Origin: Eubacteriales bacterium
GTDB taxonomy: Bacteria > Bacillota > Clostridia > Oscillospirales > CAG-272
Reading direction: 5' to 3'
DNA length: 64,000 bases
NCBI GenBank assembly: GCA_045611965.1
Contig: JAZKYE010000005.1
Location: 836 to 64,835, forward strand
Shown piece by piece: positions 1,623 to 14,765 of this stretch. Under the pieces are notes generated by a model, which worked only from the letters and a program-made list of their open reading frames with translations, did not search any database and was not told where the DNA came from. How positions within the stretch are numbered: position 1 is the stretch's first letter; every line of letters starts with the position of its first letter. The position numbers were made by a program, and so were the translations under genes.

Positions 1623-1685
1623 CTTGTTGACATTTCAACAAGATTGTGGTATTCTATAACTGTACTTGTTGAAGCTTCAACAAGT
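1623..1685 (+). promoter_or_regulatory. Promoter with two palindromic MarR-type operators
   Basis: CTTGTTGA-catt-TCAACAAG (1623-1642) overlaps TTGACA (1627-1632); extended -10 TGgTATTCT ends at 1655; perfect 22-bp palindrome ACTTGTTGAAGCTTCAACAAGT at 1664-1685. Confidence 0.75.
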
Positions 1686-1699
1686 CAAAAGGGGTGATT

Positions 1700-2143
1700 A
1701 TGAAAGAACGCTTTGAAACCTTTACTGTTCTGATTGCCAAAATCAGCCGAAACGTCAGAAGAATAAAGAATGAGCAAATGGCAGAATACGGACTTCGCAG
1801 CGCGCACATATCCTGCCTTTATTATCTCTATACCTTTGACCTTTTGACCGCAACCGACCTTTGCGAAAGATGCGAGGAGGATAAGGCAACCATTTCCCGC
1901 GCGCTCGATTTTCTTGAGGAAAAGGGCTTTATCACCTGTGAAACAAAATCTGCAAAAAGATATAAAAGCCCCCTTCTGCTAACCGAAAGGGGCAGAGAGG
2001 TCGGCAGAAAAATATCCGAAAAGATAGATAGGGTTTTAGATGCGGTGAGCGTTGGGCTTACCGATGAAGAGCGAGCGGAATTTTATCGCAGCCTTACCAT
2101 TATCAGCGATAACCTCGACAAAATTACTAAAGAAATTAAATAA
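1700..2143 (+). CDS. MarR-family transcriptional regulator
   Basis: wHTH pattern (DKATISRALDFLEEKGFI...LTERGRE); RBS AAGGGGTG before ATG 1700. Confidence 0.9.
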   Translation: MKERFETFTVLIAKISRNVRRIKNEQMAEYGLRSAHISCLYYLYTFDLLTATDLCERCEEDKATISRALDFLEEKGFITCETKSAKRYKSPLLLTERGREVGRKISEKIDRVLDAVSVGLTDEERAEFYRSLTIISDNLDKITKEIK

Positions 2144-2174
2144 ATATCATAATACGAGAAAGGAAACATCACCA

Positions 2175-4247
2175 ATGAACAATACAAGTCCAAAGTACGA
2201 GGCATTGTTTTCCCCTTGGAAAATAGGAAACGTTGAGATCAAAAACCGAATAGTAATGTGCCCTATGGGCGGTACGTCGCTGTTCGGATGGTTTGAGCTT
2301 ACGGGATGCCATTTTGACAAGGAAGCGGCAAAGCTCTTTCTTGAAAGAGCAAACAACAACGTAGGTCTTATCATCCCCGGAATTGCCCCCCTTCGCGATA
2401 CCTTCTGGGGTAAATGGCTCTGGCAGAACGAAAAGATGTTCAAGGACCTCAAGGTCTTTATGGACGAAATTCACAAGACCGGTGCAAAGCTCTTTATTCA
2501 GCTTACCGCAGGTATGGGACGCTCTTGGGCGATAACTGAGCTTGTTGCCCCTCTGCACAAGAACAGATTTACCCGTGCCCTAATCAAGCCTATCATTGAT
2601 ACGAGCCACGAGCTTGCATCCCCCTCACCCCAGAAATCCCGTTGGGCGCACGACATTGAGTGCCCCGAAATGACAGTAGAGCAGATACACGAGATAATCG
2701 AGGCGTTTGCAAAGACCGCAAAGCTCTGTAAGGAAGCAGGCGTTGACGGTGTCGAGGTGCACGCAGTTCACGAGGGCTATCTGCTTGACCAGTTTGCAAT
2801 AGAATTTTTCAACAAGCGTACTGACGAGTACGGCGGAAGCTTTGAAAATCGCTACCGCTTTGCCGCAGAGGTTGTAAAGGCGATTAAGGACGCGTGCGGA
2901 AAGGATTATCCCGTATCGGTCCGTTATTCGGTAGAGTCCAAGATGAAGGGCTTCTGCGAGGGCGCTATGCCCGGCGAGGACTACGTCGAGGTAGGAGGTA
3001 ATATGGAAGAATCCGAAAGAGCCGCAAAATACCTTCAGGACGTCGGCTACGATATGCTTAATGCCGATAATGGTACATACGACTCTTGGTGTTGGGCGCA
3101 CCCCCCGATGTATATGCCTGAAAACTGCAACCTCGACGACGTATCGCACATCAAGAAATTCGTCGATATCCCCGTCGTTTGTGCAGGACGAATGGATCCC
3201 GAGGTCGGTGCAAGAGCTGTTGCCGAGGGAAGAATAGATGCTATCGGTATTGCCCGTCAGTTCCTCGTTGATGCCGAGTGGATTACCAAGCTTATCGAGG
3301 ATAGACTTGAGGACATCAAGCCCTGCATCTGCTGTCATAGTGCCTGCTTCAACTTCTCGTCCTCTAAAGGACACGCAAACACGCAGGACCTTACCGATAC
3401 GATGGGACTTGCGCGCTGTGCGCTCAACCCCGAAACAATGCAGTCAAAGAAATATCACATTGAGCCTGCCAAGAAAAAGAAGAATATTGCCGTCATCGGT
3501 GGCGGTATCGGCGGTATGGAAGCGGCTATCGTGCTTGCCAAGCGCGGACATAGCGTAACTCTTTATGAGAAGAGCGATAAGCTCGGCGGCGTCTTTATTG
3601 CGGCGGCAGCCCCCGCCTTCAAGGAAAAGGACAAGGCGCTTATCGCCTGGTATATCCGCGAGCTTTCCAAGTATCCTCAAATCACCGTTAAGATGAACAC
3701 CGAAATCAAGGATGTAAAAGCACTTGATGCAGACGAGATTATAGTAGCAACGGGCGCTGTGGCAAAGAGAATACCCGTAAAGGGCGCAGAGAGCGCTGTC
3801 GAAGCGGTGGATTATCTGCTTGGCAACAAGACCGTAGGCGAGAGAGTTGTGGTCGTCGGCGGCGGACTTACGGGATGCGAGATTGCATACGACCTTTACC
3901 TTAACGGCAAGAAGCCTGTTATAGTAGAAATGCAGGATGACCTTATCACGACCCCCGGCATCTGCCTTGCAAACACGAGCTATCTTCGCGACTTCTTTAA
4001 GACAAATAAGGTTCCCGTATATCTTGAAACCTCTCTTTCCGAGATTGACAGCGAGGGTGTAACCCTTAAGGATAAGGACGGCAACACCTTTAAGGTTGAT
4101 GCAGATTCCGTAATTCTTTCGGTTGGATATAATCCCGCGCCCGTAGCATCAAAGGGCAGGCGCATCCACGTCATCGGTGATGCTAAAAAGGTAGGAAACC
4201 TTCGTAGCGTTATCTGGGGCGCTTGGAATATCTGTATGAAACTTTAA
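2175..4247 (+). CDS. 2-enoate reductase-type NADH:flavin oxidoreductase (Old Yellow Enzyme family, FMN/Fe-S/FAD)
   Basis: KNRIVMCPMG, HAVHEGYLLDQF, NKRTDEYGGSFENR, Fe-S motif CICCHSAC...C, two GxGxxG dinucleotide folds; start ATG 2175 after AAGGAA. Confidence 0.9.
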   Translation: MNNTSPKYEALFSPWKIGNVEIKNRIVMCPMGGTSLFGWFELTGCHFDKEAAKLFLERANNNVGLIIPGIAPLRDTFWGKWLWQNEKMFKDLKVFMDEIHKTGAKLFIQLTAGMGRSWAITELVAPLHKNRFTRALIKPIIDTSHELASPSPQKSRWAHDIECPEMTVEQIHEIIEAFAKTAKLCKEAGVDGVEVHAVHEGYLLDQFAIEFFNKRTDEYGGSFENRYRFAAEVVKAIKDACGKDYPVSVRYSVESKMKGFCEGAMPGEDYVEVGGNMEESERAAKYLQDVGYDMLNADNGTYDSWCWAHPPMYMPENCNLDDVSHIKKFVDIPVVCAGRMDPEVGARAVAEGRIDAIGIARQFLVDAEWITKLIEDRLEDIKPCICCHSACFNFSSSKGHANTQDLTDTMGLARCALNPETMQSKKYHIEPAKKKKNIAVIGGGIGGMEAAIVLAKRGHSVTLYEKSDKLGGVFIAAAAPAFKEKDKALIAWYIRELSKYPQITVKMNTEIKDVKALDADEIIVATGAVAKRIPVKGAESAVEAVDYLLGNKTVGERVVVVGGGLTGCEIAYDLYLNGKKPVIVEMQDDLITTPGICLANTSYLRDFFKTNKVPVYLETSLSEIDSEGVTLKDKDGNTFKVDADSVILSVGYNPAPVASKGRRIHVIGDAKKVGNLRSVIWGAWNICMKL

Positions 4248-4266
4248 TATTTGATAGGAGAGAAAA

Positions 4267-5541
4267 ATGATACTTACGAAAGAACAGCAGGCTATCCTTG
4301 ACGGTGAGCAGGGTGAAACGCTTGCAAAGGTAATGAAAACTCTCGTGATGTACGGAGATGCGTTTGAGGCAGAAAAGCTCGTGCCCATCACATCAAGCTA
4401 CAATCACCTTGTTACGTCATTCGGACTTAAGGTAATGTCCCCCGTGTACGACCTGATGCAGCAGCTTCTTGATGCAGGCGTATGCTCTGAACAGAAGTTC
4501 TCGGTCGATCCCCGTCCTATTGATAAGAACGTTCCCGCAAGCTTCTTGCAGAACCTCGTGTTTGGTAAGTTTATGTACACCAAGCAGGACTTTTATGAGC
4601 AGCAGCTCATAAAGCTCGGTCTTATGGATAAAAACGCCTTTACCTGCACCTGCTATATGGATGAGGTGGGCAATAAGCCGAAGAAGGGCGACGTGCTCTC
4701 TTGGGCAGAGTCAAGCGCGGTTGTTTACGCAAACTCGGTGCTTGGCGCAAGATGTAACCGAAATTCGGGCATCATTGATATTATGGGCTCTATCGTCGGC
4801 TATGTTCCTTACTTCGGACTTCTTACCGACGAGGGAAGAAAGGCAACTTGGGTTGTAAGGGTCAGGACTACCAAAAAGCCCGAGGCACAGCTTCTTGGCT
4901 CTGCTATCGGTATGAAGGTTATGGAGGACGTCCCCTACGTAGTAGGACTTGATAAATGGATAGGTAACGAGCTGAATGATGCCGCCTGTGCATATCTCAA
5001 GGATTTTGGCGCGGCAACTGCATCCAACGGTGCTGTCGGCCTTTACCATATCGAAAACCTCACCCCCGAGGCAGTCGAGCTTGGCGAGAGCCTTATCGCA
5101 GAGGGCGCTATGGAATATATCATAGACGATGCCGAGCTTGAAAGAGTAAAGAATAACTATCCCGTCATCTGGAAAAATCCCGATGCCAAGCCCAAGCTTT
5201 GCTTTGTCGGATGCCCTCACCTCTCGCTTGAACAGCTTAAGGACTGGACTGTAAAGCTTGAGAATGAGCTGAAAAGCAATGGCAACAAAAAGGTTAAGAT
5301 AAATACCGTGTTTACAGCAGCACCCGGTGTTCTTGAAGCATTTAACAAGACCGAATATGCACCAAGGCTCAAAGCAACTGGCGTTATCACCTCGTATATC
5401 TGTCCTCTGATGTATATGAATAACCCTCTTTGCAAGAAGATGCCCGTTATTACGTCATCAAATAAGCTTCGCACCTATACGAGCGCAAGATATTACACCG
5501 ACGCGGAAATTCTCAAAATCATTACGGGAGGTAAGCTTTAA
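4267..5541 (+). CDS. Aconitase X catalytic (large) subunit, DUF521
   Basis: N-terminal LTKEQQAILDGEQGE, CTCY, WAESSAVVYANSVLGARCNR, GAVGLYH, GCPH, ICP, TSSNK. Confidence 0.85.
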   Translation: MILTKEQQAILDGEQGETLAKVMKTLVMYGDAFEAEKLVPITSSYNHLVTSFGLKVMSPVYDLMQQLLDAGVCSEQKFSVDPRPIDKNVPASFLQNLVFGKFMYTKQDFYEQQLIKLGLMDKNAFTCTCYMDEVGNKPKKGDVLSWAESSAVVYANSVLGARCNRNSGIIDIMGSIVGYVPYFGLLTDEGRKATWVVRVRTTKKPEAQLLGSAIGMKVMEDVPYVVGLDKWIGNELNDAACAYLKDFGAATASNGAVGLYHIENLTPEAVELGESLIAEGAMEYIIDDAELERVKNNYPVIWKNPDAKPKLCFVGCPHLSLEQLKDWTVKLENELKSNGNKKVKINTVFTAAPGVLEAFNKTEYAPRLKATGVITSYICPLMYMNNPLCKKMPVITSSNKLRTYTSARYYTDAEILKIITGGKL

Positions 5542-5984
5542 TGAAACAGTTTAAGGGAAGAGTTGTTACCCCTGGCGAGGTAACCGCAGAAGCGGTTGTA
5601 ACAAAGGAAGGCTTCAATACGTTAGCATCGCTTCAGATGGCGCTTCAGTTTGGTGATAAGGAAGTAAAATGTGGGGATCAGAGCAATAAGGAGCTGTACG
5701 GCAAGCCCCTGCTTGGCAAGGCGCTTTGCCTGCCGCAGACCATCGGCTCGACCACGGGCGGACTCGTGCTTTACTGCGCCTGCTCAATGAAAAAGAACCC
5801 TGCTTGTATGCTGTTTGCCAACCATATCGACTCGCTTGCAGCCGCAGGCGCAGTCCTCGCTGACGTGTGGGTTGACGGCGTTACTATGCCCGTTATCGAC
5901 GGACTCGGTGACGAGTTCCTTAGCTACGTAAAGGACGGAATGAAAATCACCGTAAAGCCAGACGGTGTAGTTGAAGTAGAATAA
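5541..5984 (+). CDS. Aconitase X swiveling (small) subunit, DUF126
   Basis: FKGRVVTPGEVTAEAVVT, GKALCLP..IGSTTG, PVIDGL; TAATG translational coupling to the large subunit. Confidence 0.85.
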   Translation: MKQFKGRVVTPGEVTAEAVVTKEGFNTLASLQMALQFGDKEVKCGDQSNKELYGKPLLGKALCLPQTIGSTTGGLVLYCACSMKKNPACMLFANHIDSLAAAGAVLADVWVDGVTMPVIDGLGDEFLSYVKDGMKITVKPDGVVEVE

Positions 5985-6063
5985 TGCTCATACTCAAAAA
6001 ATCGGATGAAGCTGATGAATGGAAAAGAGCTTAAAAGCTTTTATTATACGATAGGAGAAATCT

Positions 6064-6900
6064 ATGAGAAAAATTAAAATTGTCGCAGACTCATCTTGCG
6101 ATCTTTTTAAGTTGGCGCATGCCGAGCTTGCAACTGCACCTATGAAAGTAATTACAAGCGAGAAGGAGTTTGTTGACGATCCCTCTCTCGATGTTGTCGG
6201 AATGGTCGATTTTCTGTATCAATACAAAGGAAAATCCAAATCGTCTTGCCCGAATACGATGGATTGGCTTGATGCCTTTGGAGATGCGGACGAAATCTTC
6301 TGCGTAACGATTACAAGCGGACTTTCGGGAAGCTACAATTCCGCCTGTGCTGCAAAGCACGTCTATGAATCAGAAAATCAAGGCAAGCGCGTTCATGTTT
6401 TTGATACACTTTCGGCAGGCCCCGAGATTACCTTAATTATTGAAAAAATCGAAGAATGTATAGGTCGAAATATGTCCTTTGAGGATATTTGTGATTGCGT
6501 AAGTGCATATATGAAAAAGACAGGACTTGTCTTTATGCTGAAATCACTTAAAAATTTTGCTAATAACGGCAGAGTTTCCCCTATCGTAGCAAAGCTTGTG
6601 GGTATTGTAGGCATTTGTATCGTTGGCAAAGCGAGCAACGAGGGAACGCTCGAACCGATGCATAAGTGCCGTGGCGAGCGCCGCTCGCTTGAAACCTTGG
6701 TAGAGGATCTTGAAGCAGAGGGCTTCCGTTCAGGTAAAATCAGTATAGGTCATTGCCAGAATGAATCTGCCGCCGAGCAGTTAAAGCAACTGATCCTTGC
6801 CAAATTCAAAAACGTACAGATTGAAATTCATAAATTAAGAGGACTTTGTAGCTTTTATGCTGAAAAAGGCGGCGTTCTGGTTGGATTTGAAAAGGCATAA
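6064..6900 (+). CDS. DegV-family fatty-acid-binding protein
   Basis: IVADSSCDL, KSSCPN, ITSGLSGSYNSA, DTLSAG, LKNFANNGRV. Confidence 0.9.
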   Translation: MRKIKIVADSSCDLFKLAHAELATAPMKVITSEKEFVDDPSLDVVGMVDFLYQYKGKSKSSCPNTMDWLDAFGDADEIFCVTITSGLSGSYNSACAAKHVYESENQGKRVHVFDTLSAGPEITLIIEKIEECIGRNMSFEDICDCVSAYMKKTGLVFMLKSLKNFANNGRVSPIVAKLVGIVGICIVGKASNEGTLEPMHKCRGERRSLETLVEDLEAEGFRSGKISIGHCQNESAAEQLKQLILAKFKNVQIEIHKLRGLCSFYAEKGGVLVGFEKA

Positions 6901-7065
6901 AGCAACCGGCGTTACCACCTCGTAATCTGTCCTATGATGTATATTAATAACCCTCTATGCAAGGGGATGCCCGTTATCGACGGACACGGCGACGACTTCC
7001 TTAACTATGTAAAGGACGGAATGAAAATCACCGTAAAGCCAAACGGCATAGTCGGGGCAGAGTAA
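6899..7065 (+). pseudogene. Degenerate chimeric copy of the 3' parts of the two aconitase X genes
   Basis: 6899-6977 aligns to 5371-5450 and 6967-7065 aligns to 5886-5984; joined through shared ATGCCCGTTAT; one 1-nt deletion. Confidence 0.85.
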
Positions 7066-7086: not shown

Positions 7087-7123
7087 CATGCACCCCTGAA
7101 TCGTCTGATTTCAGGGGTGCATG
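7087..7123 (+). terminator. 14-bp-stem hairpin closing the operon (terminator-like)
   Basis: CATGCACCCCTGAA ... TTCAGGGGTGCATG followed by an interrupted T-rich tract. Confidence 0.55.
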
Positions 7124-7241
7124 CTTCGTTTTGTTAGGCGTTTTTTGACACGCATCTCGACAAATCCCTTGAAAAGCCTTGATTTATTCACACCTTTATG
7201 GTACAATAAACCAAATTGACAAATCTTTGGGAGGTGAGCCT

Positions 7242-8195
7242 ATGACAATCGGATATGTAATTACCTTGGCGTTTGCCGTGGGCTTGACTGTTGCCTACTT
7301 TGCCATCGTCAAAAAAAGAGAGTTTTGGTTATCATTGCTTTATATCTGCGTGGCGGTGGTTAACCTCGGATATCTTTTACTCTCGGTATCAAAAACAGTA
7401 GAGTTCGCAATCTTCGCAAACGACGTGACGTACCTTGGCAGTGTGTTCCTCTCAATGTGTATGCTTCTCACCATTGTCAAGCTCTGCGGATTTGAAATTA
7501 AGAAGGCGCACGTTATCACCTGTGTGTCGCTCGGTGCAGTTATGTTCGCCATAATCGCAACCGCAGGTATCCTGCCTTGGTATTATAAGGAAGTATCGCT
7601 TGAATTTATCGACGGCTCTGCAAAGCTCGTAAAGGAATACGGCCCTTTGCATAATACCTATCTTGTTTATCTGCTCGGCTACTTTGCCGCAATGATCGCC
7701 ACTATTATCCATTCGATCAGAAGAAAAAAGCACGGCTCTTATAAGTTTGCAGGGCTTATTGCCGCTGTTGTTTGCGGAAACATTCTCGTTTGGTTGATTG
7801 AGAAATTTATCACTTGGGAATTTGAATTCCTATCGGTAACCTACATAATTTCCGAGCTGATGTTCCTCTTCCTCTATTGGATGATGCAGGACTACGTTCA
7901 CGTAAATGACATTTCAAAATATACGCCTGCCGAAAAAGAGCAGCTTGGTGTGGATATTGCCACGATGCCGATGGAAACGAAGATAGGCAAGGTTCTTCTT
8001 TTTGTAAGAGAGGGCGAGCTGCTTGCACCGCGAGAGCGTGAGATACTTGAGATGATATTGCAAAACAAGAAGCGAAAAGAGATCGCAGACGAATTGTATC
8101 TGTCGGAAAACACCATTAAAACCTATACGCGAACACTTTACAACAAGCTTGGCGTCGGCTCACGCGAGGAGCTTTACGCGTTGCTGTTAAAATAA
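7242..8195 (+). CDS. Membrane-anchored LuxR-family regulator (about 7 TM helices plus C-terminal HTH)
   Basis: Hydrophobic N-terminal region; C-terminal LAPREREILEMIL...EIADELYLSENTIKTY...LYNKLGVGSR; RBS GGAGGTGA. Confidence 0.85.
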   Translation: MTIGYVITLAFAVGLTVAYFAIVKKREFWLSLLYICVAVVNLGYLLLSVSKTVEFAIFANDVTYLGSVFLSMCMLLTIVKLCGFEIKKAHVITCVSLGAVMFAIIATAGILPWYYKEVSLEFIDGSAKLVKEYGPLHNTYLVYLLGYFAAMIATIIHSIRRKKHGSYKFAGLIAAVVCGNILVWLIEKFITWEFEFLSVTYIISELMFLFLYWMMQDYVHVNDISKYTPAEKEQLGVDIATMPMETKIGKVLLFVREGELLAPREREILEMILQNKKRKEIADELYLSENTIKTYTRTLYNKLGVGSREELYALLLK

Positions 8196-11488: not shown

Positions 11489-12772
11489 ATGAAAAAAATT
11501 CTAATCGCACTTACACTTATGCTTACGCTTCTGACGACTTGTCTTGTCGGATGCACACCCGCTTTGGGCAACAGCCCTGAAGCTTCAGACAGCAGCGCAC
11601 TCAAGGCAACCGCAGCGGCAGTATTCACACTTGACGTAAACCCCGGAGTACGTATATATGTAAAGGAAGATAATACGGTTATTTCGGTTGAAGCCACCAA
11701 CGAGGACGGCGAGGACGTCATAGCAGAGCTTGAGCCTGAAGGCGAGGACTATGAGCAGGTCGTTGAGCAAATCATCGACGAAATGGACGAGCAGGGATAC
11801 CTTGAGGGCGACGAAAGCTCGGTTCTTGTTTCCGTAGAGAAAAAGGCTATGGATATTTCCGAGAGGGTAAACGATAGAATCAACAAGGCATTTGAAAAGC
11901 ACGGCAAGCGCGCTTCTGTAATCGAGCAGGATTTTGATGCGCTTGATGAAGAGATTGGCAAGACAATCGGTGAGATGGCTAAAAGATACAAGATTTCCGA
12001 GGGCAAGGCTCACCTTATCGAAAAGATAAGAGAGGAATTTCCGGAGCTTTCCGAGGAAGAGCTTGCTTCACTCAAGGTAAATGACCTCGGTATGATGCTT
12101 GAAGATACCTCTGATGATATTAAGGGTCACTTCAAAAAGGTCGGAAAGGCTGTTGAGGGTGCTTACGTCGGCAGAGAGCAGGCACTTGAAATCGCGATTG
12201 AGAGCCTTGAAAATCCCAACCTCACCGCGCAGAGCATCACCATGCACCGCGTTCGCGTTACCAGAGGCGAGGGCAAGATGCTCTATGAGGTAGAGTTTGT
12301 ATATGACGGTATGGAATACACGGTCACCGTTTGTGCAAAGACCGGCGAGGTTCTTGCAAGCGAAAGCAAGGAATTTGAGCAGCTTGATGCCGAGAAAATC
12401 ATTGACGATTTCTGCCACAAGCATAATGTTGATAAGGAAGGTATTAAGGATCACGTAATGAACGAGATCTTCGACAGGGATGAGAAGAAGGACGAAAAGA
12501 AGGACGAAAAGGAAGAGGATAATAAGCCCTTGACACGCCGCGAGCTTCTTAAGGGTGTGATAGAAGCACTCGGTATTTCCGAGGATGCCTTAAAAAAGAC
12601 CGACGTTAAGCTTCACAGAGCTAAAGGCGGCGAGGTCGCAGCTGTTATCATTGAGCTGAATAACGGTGACACTTACAAAATTGTCGTTGAGACATTTAGC
12701 GCAACGGTCCTGAAGGCAGAGCTTAACGGTGCGGAATTTGAAATTCCCGCAAGCGAGGCTGAGGCTGAATAA
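11489..12772 (+). CDS. Lipoprotein with RsgI-like extracellular domain and PepSY-like domains
   Basis: Lipobox LVGC; TLDVNPGVRI...VEATNEDG...GYL...VLVSV; ISEGKAHLI; YEVEF...VCAKTGEV. Confidence 0.75.
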   Translation: MKKILIALTLMLTLLTTCLVGCTPALGNSPEASDSSALKATAAAVFTLDVNPGVRIYVKEDNTVISVEATNEDGEDVIAELEPEGEDYEQVVEQIIDEMDEQGYLEGDESSVLVSVEKKAMDISERVNDRINKAFEKHGKRASVIEQDFDALDEEIGKTIGEMAKRYKISEGKAHLIEKIREEFPELSEEELASLKVNDLGMMLEDTSDDIKGHFKKVGKAVEGAYVGREQALEIAIESLENPNLTAQSITMHRVRVTRGEGKMLYEVEFVYDGMEYTVTVCAKTGEVLASESKEFEQLDAEKIIDDFCHKHNVDKEGIKDHVMNEIFDRDEKKDEKKDEKEEDNKPLTRRELLKGVIEALGISEDALKKTDVKLHRAKGGEVAAVIIELNNGDTYKIVVETFSATVLKAELNGAEFEIPASEAEAE

Positions 12773-12980
12773 ATAATACCAGGCGCGTCAGTATCGCGGA
12801 TTGCGACGCTGGCGCGTCAGTGGCAAGCGCGTAGTAAATTACGATGCCAAGTTGAAAAAATTGCAAAAAACAAAATGATACTGCAAATTTAAAGCAGACT
12901 ATAGAAAAATGTTGTTTTTTATTACTTTTTGTGCTATAATTTAATAGATAATTCACTAACTGCGAAAGGTGATAAAAACC

Positions 12981-13556
12981 GTGCTTTACGTGTACACGTT
13001 GACTGAAGGAGAGGTTCGTAGCAGGGACACAAAGACCGAAGAGCTCATCGCGCGAATGTCTCGCGGTGATGTGTCTGCTATGGGTGACCTTTACCAGCTT
13101 ATAGAAACTGATATTTTTGCATACGCTCTGTCAAAAACCGCAAATAAAGCGGATGCAGAGGATATAACCCACGACACCTTCGTTCAGGTATGGAAAAACG
13201 CAACGCAGTATAAGCCTATGGGTAAGCCGCTTGCGTGGATATTTACTATCGAAATGAACCTGATGCGTAGACAGTTTAGTAAAAATCAAAGATTTGTTCC
13301 GCTTGACGAGTCTATTGATATCGAGTCCGACGACGGTGATTTTACAAAAGATATGATAAGGAGCGAATTTCTCAGACAGATGCTGGGCATCTTGAGTGAT
13401 GAGGAACGCGAGATCATCGCGCTACATATCGTGTCAGGGCTAAAGCATAGAGAAATAGCGAAGCTTTTGGCAAAACCGCTATCAACCGTGCTGTCAAAAT
13501 ATAATCGCGCAATAAAGAAGCTTCAAATTGAAATCAAGGAAAGGGATGAGCAGTAA
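12981..13556 (+). CDS. ECF RNA polymerase sigma factor
   Basis: DAEDITHDTFVQVW, LAWIFTI, LSDEEREIIALH...GLKHREIA...STVLSKYNRA; GTG 12981 follows RBS AAAGGTGA (alternative start 12969). Confidence 0.9.
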   Translation: MLYVYTLTEGEVRSRDTKTEELIARMSRGDVSAMGDLYQLIETDIFAYALSKTANKADAEDITHDTFVQVWKNATQYKPMGKPLAWIFTIEMNLMRRQFSKNQRFVPLDESIDIESDDGDFTKDMIRSEFLRQMLGILSDEEREIIALHIVSGLKHREIAKLLAKPLSTVLSKYNRAIKKLQIEIKERDEQ

Positions 13557-14765
13557 GTGAAAAGACGGGATTTAAAAAACAAAATAACCGAAGCCTTCGA
13601 GGCTGAAGCGCCGAATCTTCGCTCGAAAATTCTTGCTTCCTGTGAAAAAGAAGCGCAGCTACCGGTTACTGCTTCTTCGGTGCAGGTTAAAAAAGAACCT
13701 GTGAAACGTCCTAATTATACTATGATGTTCAGGCGAATTGCAGCGTGCGCGCTCTGCCTTGTGCTCTTTATTTCGGGCTTGTCGATAGGCTTGTTTATTC
13801 CAAACGGAATCGGTGATACGGTAGCGTCAGGGGATGCCGAAACCTTTGTTTACATTGACGTAAACCCAAGCATAGAGCTTCAGATGGATGGCGAAAGCAA
13901 GGTTGTGGAATGCTTGGCGGTTAACGAGGATGCAAAGGCAATTCTCGCAGGACTAAAGCTTGAGGGTGTGGATATGAACACCGCGCTCACTGCAATCGTC
14001 GGCTCAATGTATGTGAACGGCTATCTTACCGAGGATTCAAATTCCATTCTGATAAGCGTGGATAGAAAGAACGATGAAGCAACCGATACGCTTCTGTCCG
14101 ATATTACGGGCAAGATTAATACCGTGTTTAAAAACTCCGGGCTTGAATGTTCTATCATAGCGCAGAAGGTTAACGTTGATGACAACCTTAAGCAAAGAGC
14201 GAGCGAAAACGGTGTTTCGGTCGGTAAAATGCACCTTGTTGACAAAATGGTCGGAACGGACGACTTCAATGCCGAGGATGCTTCCGACCTTGCCGATATG
14301 TCTATCAAGGAGCTGAATCTGATATATTCTACAAGGCCGAACAAGGGCGACGGAAACGATCCGTTTAACAATGATATTTCAAGCGGTGACATCGGTGGAT
14401 TTGTAGGTCAGGACGATGCTTTGACCTTGCTTCTCGCGGAGCTCGAGGTGGAACGTTCAGAGCTTGAATGGCATCGTGTGAAGGCAAAGCCGCAGCACAA
14501 TAACGGCAACAGACAGATGGTATATCACGTGTCCATCCGCATAAAGGGTGACACCGCCACCTATGACTTTGAGGTGGATTGCAAGACGGGTGAGGTTGTG
14601 AAGATAGACCACGATATGCCAGCAGTCAATACCCCTGGCGGTAGCGGCGGCACACCTCAATCAGGAACACTTCCCGGCACCCACGGGCAGAATAAAGACA
14701 ACACATCGCCCACCCACACAAACGGTGGCGAACCGCCCCGTGGCGGTAACGATGGGCAACGGTAA
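13557..14765 (+). CDS. Transmembrane anti-sigma factor with RsgI-like and PepSY-like domains
   Basis: Abuts the sigma gene; cytoplasmic N-terminus, one TM helix, YIDVNPSIEL...NEDA...NGYL, GVSVGK, VDCKTGEV, Gly/Pro/Thr-rich tail. Confidence 0.8.
   Translation: MKRRDLKNKITEAFEAEAPNLRSKILASCEKEAQLPVTASSVQVKKEPVKRPNYTMMFRRIAACALCLVLFISGLSIGLFIPNGIGDTVASGDAETFVYIDVNPSIELQMDGESKVVECLAVNEDAKAILAGLKLEGVDMNTALTAIVGSMYVNGYLTEDSNSILISVDRKNDEATDTLLSDITGKINTVFKNSGLECSIIAQKVNVDDNLKQRASENGVSVGKMHLVDKMVGTDDFNAEDASDLADMSIKELNLIYSTRPNKGDGNDPFNNDISSGDIGGFVGQDDALTLLLAELEVERSELEWHRVKAKPQHNNGNRQMVYHVSIRIKGDTATYDFEVDCKTGEVVKIDHDMPAVNTPGGSGGTPQSGTLPGTHGQNKDNTSPTHTNGGEPPRGGNDGQR

Follow-up and report, generated by a model that had tools for sequence, protein, structure and literature searches.

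An aconitase X and its flavoenzyme partner in gut Clostridia: a candidate CoA-free route from 3-hydroxy fatty acids to saturated ones

Introduction

What does an aconitase X (AcnX) do when its constant companion is a 2-enoate reductase? The question is raised by a locus on contig JAZKYE010000005.1 (assembly GCA_045611965.1) of a Eubacteriales bacterium of the order Oscillospirales, of which a stretch of 64,000 nucleotides, here called the window, was analysed. Five genes of one direction lie together near the start of the window, encoding a MarR-family regulator (marR), a flavoenzyme with the architecture of 2-enoate reductases (enr), the large and small subunits of AcnX (acnXL and acnXS) and a DegV protein (degV). 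The original prediction took them for an operon that dehydrates a 3-hydroxy acid and then reduces the product without CoA, as an electron sink. The reading to which we give about an even chance of being correct is that the trio enr-acnXL-acnXS converts 3-hydroxy fatty acids to saturated ones, free of CoA, for membrane salvage. The chemistry is suggested by residues typical of the two enzyme families, and the lipid substrate by the distribution of the cassette, its neighbours and its regulator.

A conserved pair of enzymes

Is the five-gene arrangement kept in other genomes? The AcnX clade is large: its protein clusters number at least 8000, and GTDB contains about 3100 stretches that match it. 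Three sets of loci were surveyed: the best 80 of the GTDB stretches (80-94% identity), 80 metagenome loci, of which many are short, and 40 loci from 50 carriers in an even draw of the host's order. The reductase gene adjoins acnX in 76 of the 80 close GTDB loci, and three of the four exceptions stop within 150 bp of a contig edge, leaving L066 as truly solo. It also adjoins acnX in 43/80 metagenome loci and 30/40 evenly drawn ones, so the predicted linkage is conserved. The same is not true of the flanking genes. The cassette is adjoined by marR in 14/80 GTDB loci and in none of the 80 metagenome or 40 evenly drawn loci; degV adjoins it in 5/80 GTDB loci and in none of the 40 evenly drawn, and the five degV genes are unlike one another and lie both upstream and downstream of the trio. 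We therefore reject the five genes as a conserved unit, since marR and degV are missing from most copies. What is conserved is the trio, to which marR and degV are optional additions, and the predicted operon holds in this narrower form.

Co-occurrence tells the same story. Among 61 relatives of the host, AcnX is found in 18 genomes, and an orthologue of the reductase (at least 52% identity) in 17 of those 18 and in 0 of the remaining 43, among which four genomes have nothing closer than reductase relatives of 31-43% identity. In the sole AcnX genome without the orthologue, AcnX lies at a contig edge. All five of the solo-acnX genomes tested carry a reductase orthologue elsewhere in the genome. 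From adjacency, co-occurrence and these displaced orthologues it follows that AcnX and the reductase behave as an obligate pair. A second reductase clade (28-31% identity) is also found as a partner to this AcnX, with the genes in either order.

Some loci depart from the pattern. In L239 (6209-8987) a carotenoid-desaturase-like flavoprotein gene and a ferredoxin-reductase-like gene lie directly 5' of acnXL, replacing the enoate reductase. In Burkholderia arboris (L257, 6126-11031) a distant AcnX pair (28% identity) is two open reading frames (ORFs) away from a FadH-like flavoenzyme. Plasmid-borne relatives of the reductase stand alone beside regulators, and no clue to the substrate was gained from them.

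Residues of aconitase X

Does this AcnX belong with one of the characterised types? Both subunits are clear family members (PF04412, 309.9 bits against a cut-off of 31.5; PF01989, 44.3 bits against 27). An AlphaFold model of AcnXL (pLDDT 94) is predicted to fold like 7CNR and 7CNP, and the Foldseek match to 7CNR has E 1e-30 and a TM-score of 0.81 at 28% identity. The enzyme of 7CNR/7CNS is the mevalonate 5-phosphate (MVA5P) dehydratase of T. kodakarensis, type IIb, which also has two subunits (PMC8184944, in the part of the paper available). The type II set is kept here: the three cluster cysteines, the Glu, Ser, Lys and Tyr, and a Ser base on the separate small subunit, predicted to be S70 in an S-T-T motif of AcnXS. 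In AcnXL, every one of 200 clade members has C127, E148, C316, C379, K400 and Y404, and 199 have S149.

The substrate-binding residues are different. The phosphate site of the MVA5P enzyme (G48-V49-S50, N53 and N79) has no match in AcnXL: its G-V-S loop gives way to V-T-S-F, within a clade-specific loop H47-L-V-T-S-F-G53, and Asn79 to D86. Rows L151/L156 stood in to set the register of the loop, the direct alignment with 7CNR being gapped, and G-V-S is absent in either register. V49 is found in 200/200 and F52 in 195/200 clade members. The model also places an extra helix at 93-103, and the partner is a flavin reductase where the type IIb enzyme has a UbiD decarboxylase. With the cis-3-hydroxy-L-proline (C3LHyp) dehydratase our AcnX shares the fold (TM-score 0.82), the residues for elimination of the C3 hydroxyl, a subsequent reductase step and Thr72 of the small subunit. 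Thr72 is, however, the only landmark kept: Asp203, Trp35 and Ile206 are not, V49, L28 (a Leu at the Trp35 position) and F52 being aligned instead, the cysteine set is that of type II, there are no hydroxyproline genes, and the NCBIfam score for NF051439 is 134.5 against a cut-off of 700.

The absence of proline racemase-family genes, predicted for the window, extends to the host genome (91% complete), in which neither a member of that family nor a UbiD-family (PF01977) match was found. In a quick tree of 81 rows, where the hydroxyproline and mevalonate types are represented by rows with suggestive neighbours and not by characterised AcnX sequences, the host AcnX falls within a group of 49 rows (SH-aLRT 98), apart from the rows with racemase or UbiD neighbours. 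The phylogeny called for by the original prediction thus puts this AcnX outside both groups, and it lacks their substrate residues. From the retained cluster, carboxylate and base residues together with the H-L-V-T-S-F-G loop, it looks as if the head-group chemistry is kept and the tail site is non-polar. The hydroxyproline and mevalonate roles were rejected on residues and gene context. We consider it hardly credible that the enzyme is a C3LHyp or MVA5P dehydratase beside an unrelated neighbour, despite the common fold and core residues and a convergent proline-racemase-family gene at the deep member L134, given the missing landmarks, the low NCBIfam score, the absence of racemase and UbiD matches in the host, the separate clade and the strict co-occurrence with the reductase.

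Other AcnX groups came to light. L162-L166 and L169 form a separate two-subunit group with 100% support in the tree, whose neighbours, judged by eye, resemble histidine-utilisation genes (urocanate hydratase, imidazolonepropionase) or histidinol-dehydrogenase-like genes; the group may represent a further unassigned AcnX reaction. L151, L153, L160 and L170 are bacterial AcnX loci with a G-V-S or G-x-S loop beside runs of similar genes of 216-224 amino acids, which by eye look like RraA-type aldolases, and UbiD/UbiX-like genes occur in some of these loci. Matches in the ESM Atlas carried AcnX labels only, and cluster look-ups of distant AcnX proteins gave almost no names.

The reductase

The reductase was correctly called as HAVHEGY-type: the motif stands at 196-202 (H196-AVHEG-Y202), and an OYE domain, four Fe-S cysteines (C384, C387, C391 and C415) and an FAD/NADH domain are present, as listed for the clostridial 2-enoate reductases of C. 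tyrobutyricum, M. thermoacetica and C. sporogenes (FldZ) in the available part of PMC5882074. The comparison is with those listed features; lengths are similar (690 versus 665 amino acids). The model has a pLDDT of 84. Scores lie below the NCBIfam cut-offs for BilR (357 of 750 bits) and BaiCD (347 of 825 bits), and the protein is 40% and 34% identical to two that their sources label 2-enoate reductase. Set against the partner so labelled in L134, it has an insert of about 20 residues after AGxGR and a longer cysteine spacing. It is tied to AcnX, while the clostridial FldABC context consists of a CoA-transferase and a radical dehydratase. Membership of the family does not fix the substrate, since FldZ reduces only cinnamate and p-coumarate and other clostridial enzymes are broader (PMC5882074, same part).

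Fatty-acid synthesis in carriers

The link to DegV prompted a test for fatty-acid synthesis by this host. No match to fabZ, fabF or fabD was found in the genome, at its 91% completeness, whereas it holds two FakA-like, two PlsX and three DegV genes. There are two fakA-degV loci (G000:C48 52183-56490 and C60 28900-31495), one of which also holds the second plsX and an acyltransferase gene. The host DegV scores 158.5 for TIGR00762 (cut-off 99.7) and does not reach the FakB1 equivalog (58.8 against 350). According to the part of PMC6784871 available, many uncultured gut bacteria are without fatty-acid synthesis, and uptake of exogenous acids has been suggested.

Is the cassette associated with this deficiency? 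In a single draw from the host's order, comprising 301 genomes that are each at least 90% complete, AcnX is present in 45 of 157 fabF-less genomes and in 5 of 144 fabF-bearing ones. The within-family Mantel-Haenszel odds ratio is 6.3, rising to 10 once family and genome size are both taken into account (7 informative families, 145 genomes). Joint carriers of AcnX and fabF number 4 against 10.9 expected in the 7 families (permutation p 0.00075), though p-values for this association are overstated because kin are not independent. General genome streamlining was considered as the cause of the fabF link and is argued against by the size term and by aroC, which is kept in 282/301 genomes. Calls of fabZ and fabF agree in all 61 genomes searched for both. 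G729 (L304), a fabF-less genome of 0.9 Mb that is 100% complete, carries acnXL-acnXS near degV, with the reductase on another contig.

Neighbours of the cassette

Neighbours were scanned as 84 co-oriented ORFs around the first 80 loci, with 9 more chosen by eye; of 69 neighbour ORFs of the evenly drawn loci, 13 chosen by eye were scanned. The informative genes that recur encode MarR, DegV, aldehyde and iron-dependent alcohol dehydrogenases, PanE-like proteins (3' of acnXS in 3/80 loci) and amide hydrolases. Acyltransferase genes are neighbours in L061, L224 and L227, an oleate-hydratase-family gene in L290, and in L270 an AMP-binding ligase whose best match, below cut-off, is to long-chain acyl-CoA ligases. 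No transporter recurs beside the cassette in the loci surveyed. The richest case is L021, where the trio is co-oriented with genes for an iron-dependent alcohol dehydrogenase, DegV, an aldehyde dehydrogenase, YhhN (lysoplasmalogenase family), a patatin and DUF1295. Because YhhN-family proteins free fatty aldehyde from lysoplasmalogen (PMC3137066 and PMC9052158, in the parts available), the run looks like a set of tools for removing fatty acids from the lipids of other cells.

A homologue 48% identical to the host AcnX, and inside the same clade in the tree, occurs on a plasmid of Rhodococcus opacus PD630 (L171, 10977-13730), with genes for a divergent LysR regulator, an MFS transporter, a hydrolase and an SDR. 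It is a candidate for the handling of coumarin or cis-cinnamate in an aerobe.

Regulator and operator

Is the operon under lipid control? The predicted palindrome just ahead of marR is real and perfect, and a twin copy covers the -35 box (Table 1). The two are the sole perfect matches in the 1.84-Mb host genome, and no site other than these two at the marR promoter matches with fewer than two mismatches. The layout of promoter and operators is kept, by alignment, upstream of 9 other related marR genes, and autorepression is for this reason a reasonable inference. The MarR protein scores far below the BilQ cut-off. When 5 genomes whose cassettes are headed by marR were searched for the pattern, G880 proved to have a second operator pair, 41 bp apart, at the head of marR-degV-fakA; one-mismatch sites elsewhere in these genomes, where inspected, lie inside genes or are unexplained. 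In L194 an operator-like pair precedes marR-degV, and in G603 a related MarR heads yhhN.

The known parallel is FabT with the FakAB-PlsX uptake route; FabT, a MarR regulator of fatty-acid genes, binds the palindrome ANTTTGACTGTNAAATT upstream of fab genes (PMC8406281 and PMC9083066, as far as the available text goes). The likeness lies in marR being first in the operon to be repressed, in the TTGA/TCAA half-sites and in a sibling regulator heading degV-fakA. It is a resemblance, not membership: the half-sites are 4 apart here and 3 in the FabT palindrome, and no fab genes were found in the host.

The operator palindrome also occurs at cassettes without an adjoining marR (L034, L045, L077, L214 and L316), which suggests control in trans or recent loss of the gene.

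A proposed route

How might the parts work together? The two-subunit AcnX would dehydrate a free 3-hydroxy fatty acid to the 2-enoate, its [4Fe-4S] cluster serving as Lewis acid and its Ser as base in elimination of the C3 hydroxyl, as family chemistry predicts (PMC8184944, available part). The flavoenzyme would reduce the 2-enoate with NADH by addition of a hydride and a proton, again following its family (PMC5882074, available part). DegV would hand the saturated acid to the host fatty-acid kinase (FakA) for membrane lipid, and MarR is predicted to act as repressor of the operon from both palindromes, responding to an acyl signal. Lipid A and the lipids of Bacteroidota are sources of 3-hydroxy acyl chains. 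Chains of this kind shed by neighbouring cells would be the supply, and a long alkyl chain the tail of the substrate; for both, the genomic context is our guide.

The CoA-free sequence of dehydration and reduction fits the retained catalytic residues, and the original prediction has come through the two findings that bear hardest on it, the conserved linkage to the reductase and the place of AcnX outside the groups with hydroxyproline- or UbiD-type neighbours. Its other parts have fared unevenly. As the purpose of the route, fatty-acid salvage is better supported than an electron sink. As to its hints at the substrate, the fatty-acid-like one has gained genomic support, while the aromatic one draws on a single Rhodococcus locus and FldZ-type chemistry.

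Several observations weigh against salvage of 3-hydroxy fatty acids. Most copies of the cassette are bare, with no lipid gene beside them, and none of the 40 evenly drawn loci has DegV, MarR, YhhN or patatin by the queries used. The PanE-like (3/80) and amide-hydrolase (2/80) neighbours are unaccounted for. The R. opacus homologue lies beside a hydroxyphenylpropionate ring-cleavage cluster and has no reductase. On the regulatory side, the G880 MarR is only 28% identical to that of the host, no good operator match was found at the marR genes of G603 and G375, and 8 of 10 further genomes probed gave no MarR match, the other two giving one each. As many as 112 of the 157 fabF-less genomes are without the cassette, and loss of fabF may go with a habitat in which a different substrate is supplied. 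Replication outside the order is weak: AcnX occurs in 9/82 fabF-less and 9/163 fabF-bearing genomes (p 0.13; counted by hand from tables, G723 being left out of the class counts); the split becomes 9 versus 5 at an identity of at least 60% and 5 versus 0 at an identity of at least 80%, thresholds that were set post hoc. Some deep-branching AcnX members lack an adjoining reductase, and deep members sit in fabF-bearing genomes (4/4; also G639, G670, G699 and G700), where they have other reductases or none. Membrane-binding helices in the inserts were considered and left unused, as the hydrophobic-moment scan was not distinctive (D of 0.43 for AcnXL 88-105, and of 1.3-1.5 for the reductase insert, with two other windows higher).

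Alternative substrates

Could the substrate be aromatic? AcnX might dehydrate 3-aryl-3-hydroxypropionates, or isomerise cis- to trans-cinnamates, with the reductase as electron sink. The R. opacus homologue lies beside genes for a monooxygenase, a hydrolase and a 2,3-dihydroxyphenylpropionate dioxygenase cluster; F52 and V49 stand where polar residues were; FldZ takes only cinnamate and p-coumarate (PMC5882074, in the part cited above); ruminant gut genomes supply many of the close loci; and the lack of a recurring transporter is also in keeping. Yet the locus is a single one, from an aerobe, and no aromatic gene recurs beside the gut loci surveyed. Phenylpropanoids would leave unexplained why AcnX is enriched tenfold among genomes without fabF, why genes for DegV, YhhN and patatin occur as neighbours and why the operator stands at marR-degV-fakA. 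We think them an unlikely substrate in general, although they may be the right one for the deep fabF-bearing branches and not for the host's.

Another lipid would share the fabF evidence with the 3-hydroxy fatty acids that we favour. Phytenic acid derived from phytol, undergoing E/Z isomerisation and reduction to phytanate, is one candidate, and 2- or 3-enoic acids from fatty-aldehyde oxidation are others, AcnX acting as isomerase or hydratase. The iron-dependent alcohol and aldehyde dehydrogenase genes that share the trio's orientation in L021 and L047, the carotenoid-desaturase-like gene preceding acnX in L239 and the 3-hydroxy-3-methyl skeleton of the archaeal relative's substrate (PMC8184944, part available) are in its favour. 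The dehydrogenase pair is found in only 2/80 loci, however, and aldehydes released by YhhN explain it equally well; moreover, if the reductase served ambient enoates, it would be expected in many genomes that lack AcnX, and it is present in 0/43 of them. Such a substrate is in our view quite unlikely.

The two AcnX substrates known so far are small and polar (PMC8184944, in the same part), the small subunit shares Thr72 with the hydroxyproline enzyme, and a PanE-like gene follows acnXS in the three loci noted above. Might a small polar 3-hydroxy acid, such as 3-hydroxybutyrate, carnitine, a sugar-derived or a dicarboxylic acid, be dehydroxylated as an NADH sink, the lipid links being incidental? 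We regard this as improbable: no transporter recurs, the specificity loop is non-polar, and the fabF association is left unaccounted for.

Relation to known pathways

The half-cycle of type II synthesis carried out by FabZ and FabI takes 3-hydroxyacyl to trans-2-enoyl to acyl. The net chemistry proposed for the trio is the same, on unrelated folds, and is predicted to proceed on the free acid without acyl carrier protein or CoA, in hosts in which the type II pathway was not found. Stated at full breadth, AcnX and the flavin ene-reductase would be a carrier-free counterpart of FabZ/FabI in fatty-acid-auxotrophic gut Clostridia, fed by 3-hydroxy acyl chains of Gram-negative endotoxin and outer lipids; this broader claim we hold tentatively, at somewhat less than even chances.

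Both enzyme families are known, and the combined route appears to be undescribed. The remaining bacterial AcnX subclasses are without an assigned reaction in the available part of PMC8184944, and among open-access papers and preprints we found none that links aconitase X, AcnX, DUF521 or DUF126 to an enoate reductase or describes such a route. If the proposal is true, the trio represents a third AcnX chemistry and an undescribed fate for gut 3-hydroxy fatty acids, and it explains how hydroxylated chains otherwise unusable as building material are put to use. It would also offer a clue to culturing uncultured gut bacteria, suggesting a medium supplement, and the enzyme pair would be a CoA-free deoxygenation system with a cheap assay on commercial substrates. 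Should the substrate be aromatic or isoprenoid, the AcnX reaction would still be new.

Structure of the locus

ORFs and Pfam matches confirm the positions and identities predicted for the five co-directional genes (Table 1), which are separated by gaps of 31, 19, -1 (a TAATG overlap) and 79 bp. The single promoter predicted ahead of them corresponds to one promoter-like site. A consensus match alone is weak, because the scan found 13 sites where 7.7 were expected; here the -35 and -10 boxes are conserved upstream of related marR genes.

Table 1. Features at the marR-enr-acnXL-acnXS-degV locus, in window coordinates
Feature	Position	Strand	Description
operator palindrome 1, TTGTTGA-N4-TCAACAA	1624-1641	.	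overlaps -35 box
sigma-70-type promoter-like site, TTGACA-17-(TG)TATTCT	1627-1655	+	-35/-10 conserved among aligned marR loci
operator palindrome 2	1664-1685	.	perfect over 22 bp, just 5' of marR ribosome site
marR	1700-2143	+	MarR-family regulator, 147 aa; Pfam MarR; predicted autorepressor
enr	2175-4247	+	OYE / Fe-S / FAD flavoenzyme, 2-enoate-reductase architecture, 690 aa; Pfam Oxidored_FMN and Pyr_redox_2
acnXL	4267-5541	+	aconitase X large subunit, 424 aa; Pfam AcnX
acnXS	5541-5984	+	aconitase X small (swivel) subunit, 147 aa; Pfam AcnX_swivel
degV	6064-6900	+	DegV (FakB-like) protein, predicted fatty-acid carrier, 278 aa; Pfam DegV
decayed second acnXL/acnXS copy	6892-7065	+	overlaps degV stop; 87-91% identical to the tails
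inverted repeat	7087-7123	+	14 bp, perfect, 9-nt loop, then CTTCGTTTT; read from sequence

How did degV come to be here? Behind it lies a decayed copy in which the tail of acnXL (5364-5450) is fused to that of acnXS (5886-5984) at a common 11-mer, ATGCCCGTTAT. These remnants suggest that a duplication or recombination took place at the cassette's end and brought degV in. The inverted repeat that follows is likely to be a terminator; its loop puts it outside the terminator scan, which takes loops of 3-8 only.

Two further genes or groups of genes in the window deserve mention. The one at 7179-8195, not found near other cassettes in the loci surveyed for neighbours, joins a 7TM (HisKA_7TM) domain directly to a LuxR-type HTH, without a kinase, and its product is possibly a one-component membrane sensor. 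At 11489-14765 an ECF-type sigma factor gene is flanked by two genes that, by eye, are similarly built and anti-sigma/PepSY-like.

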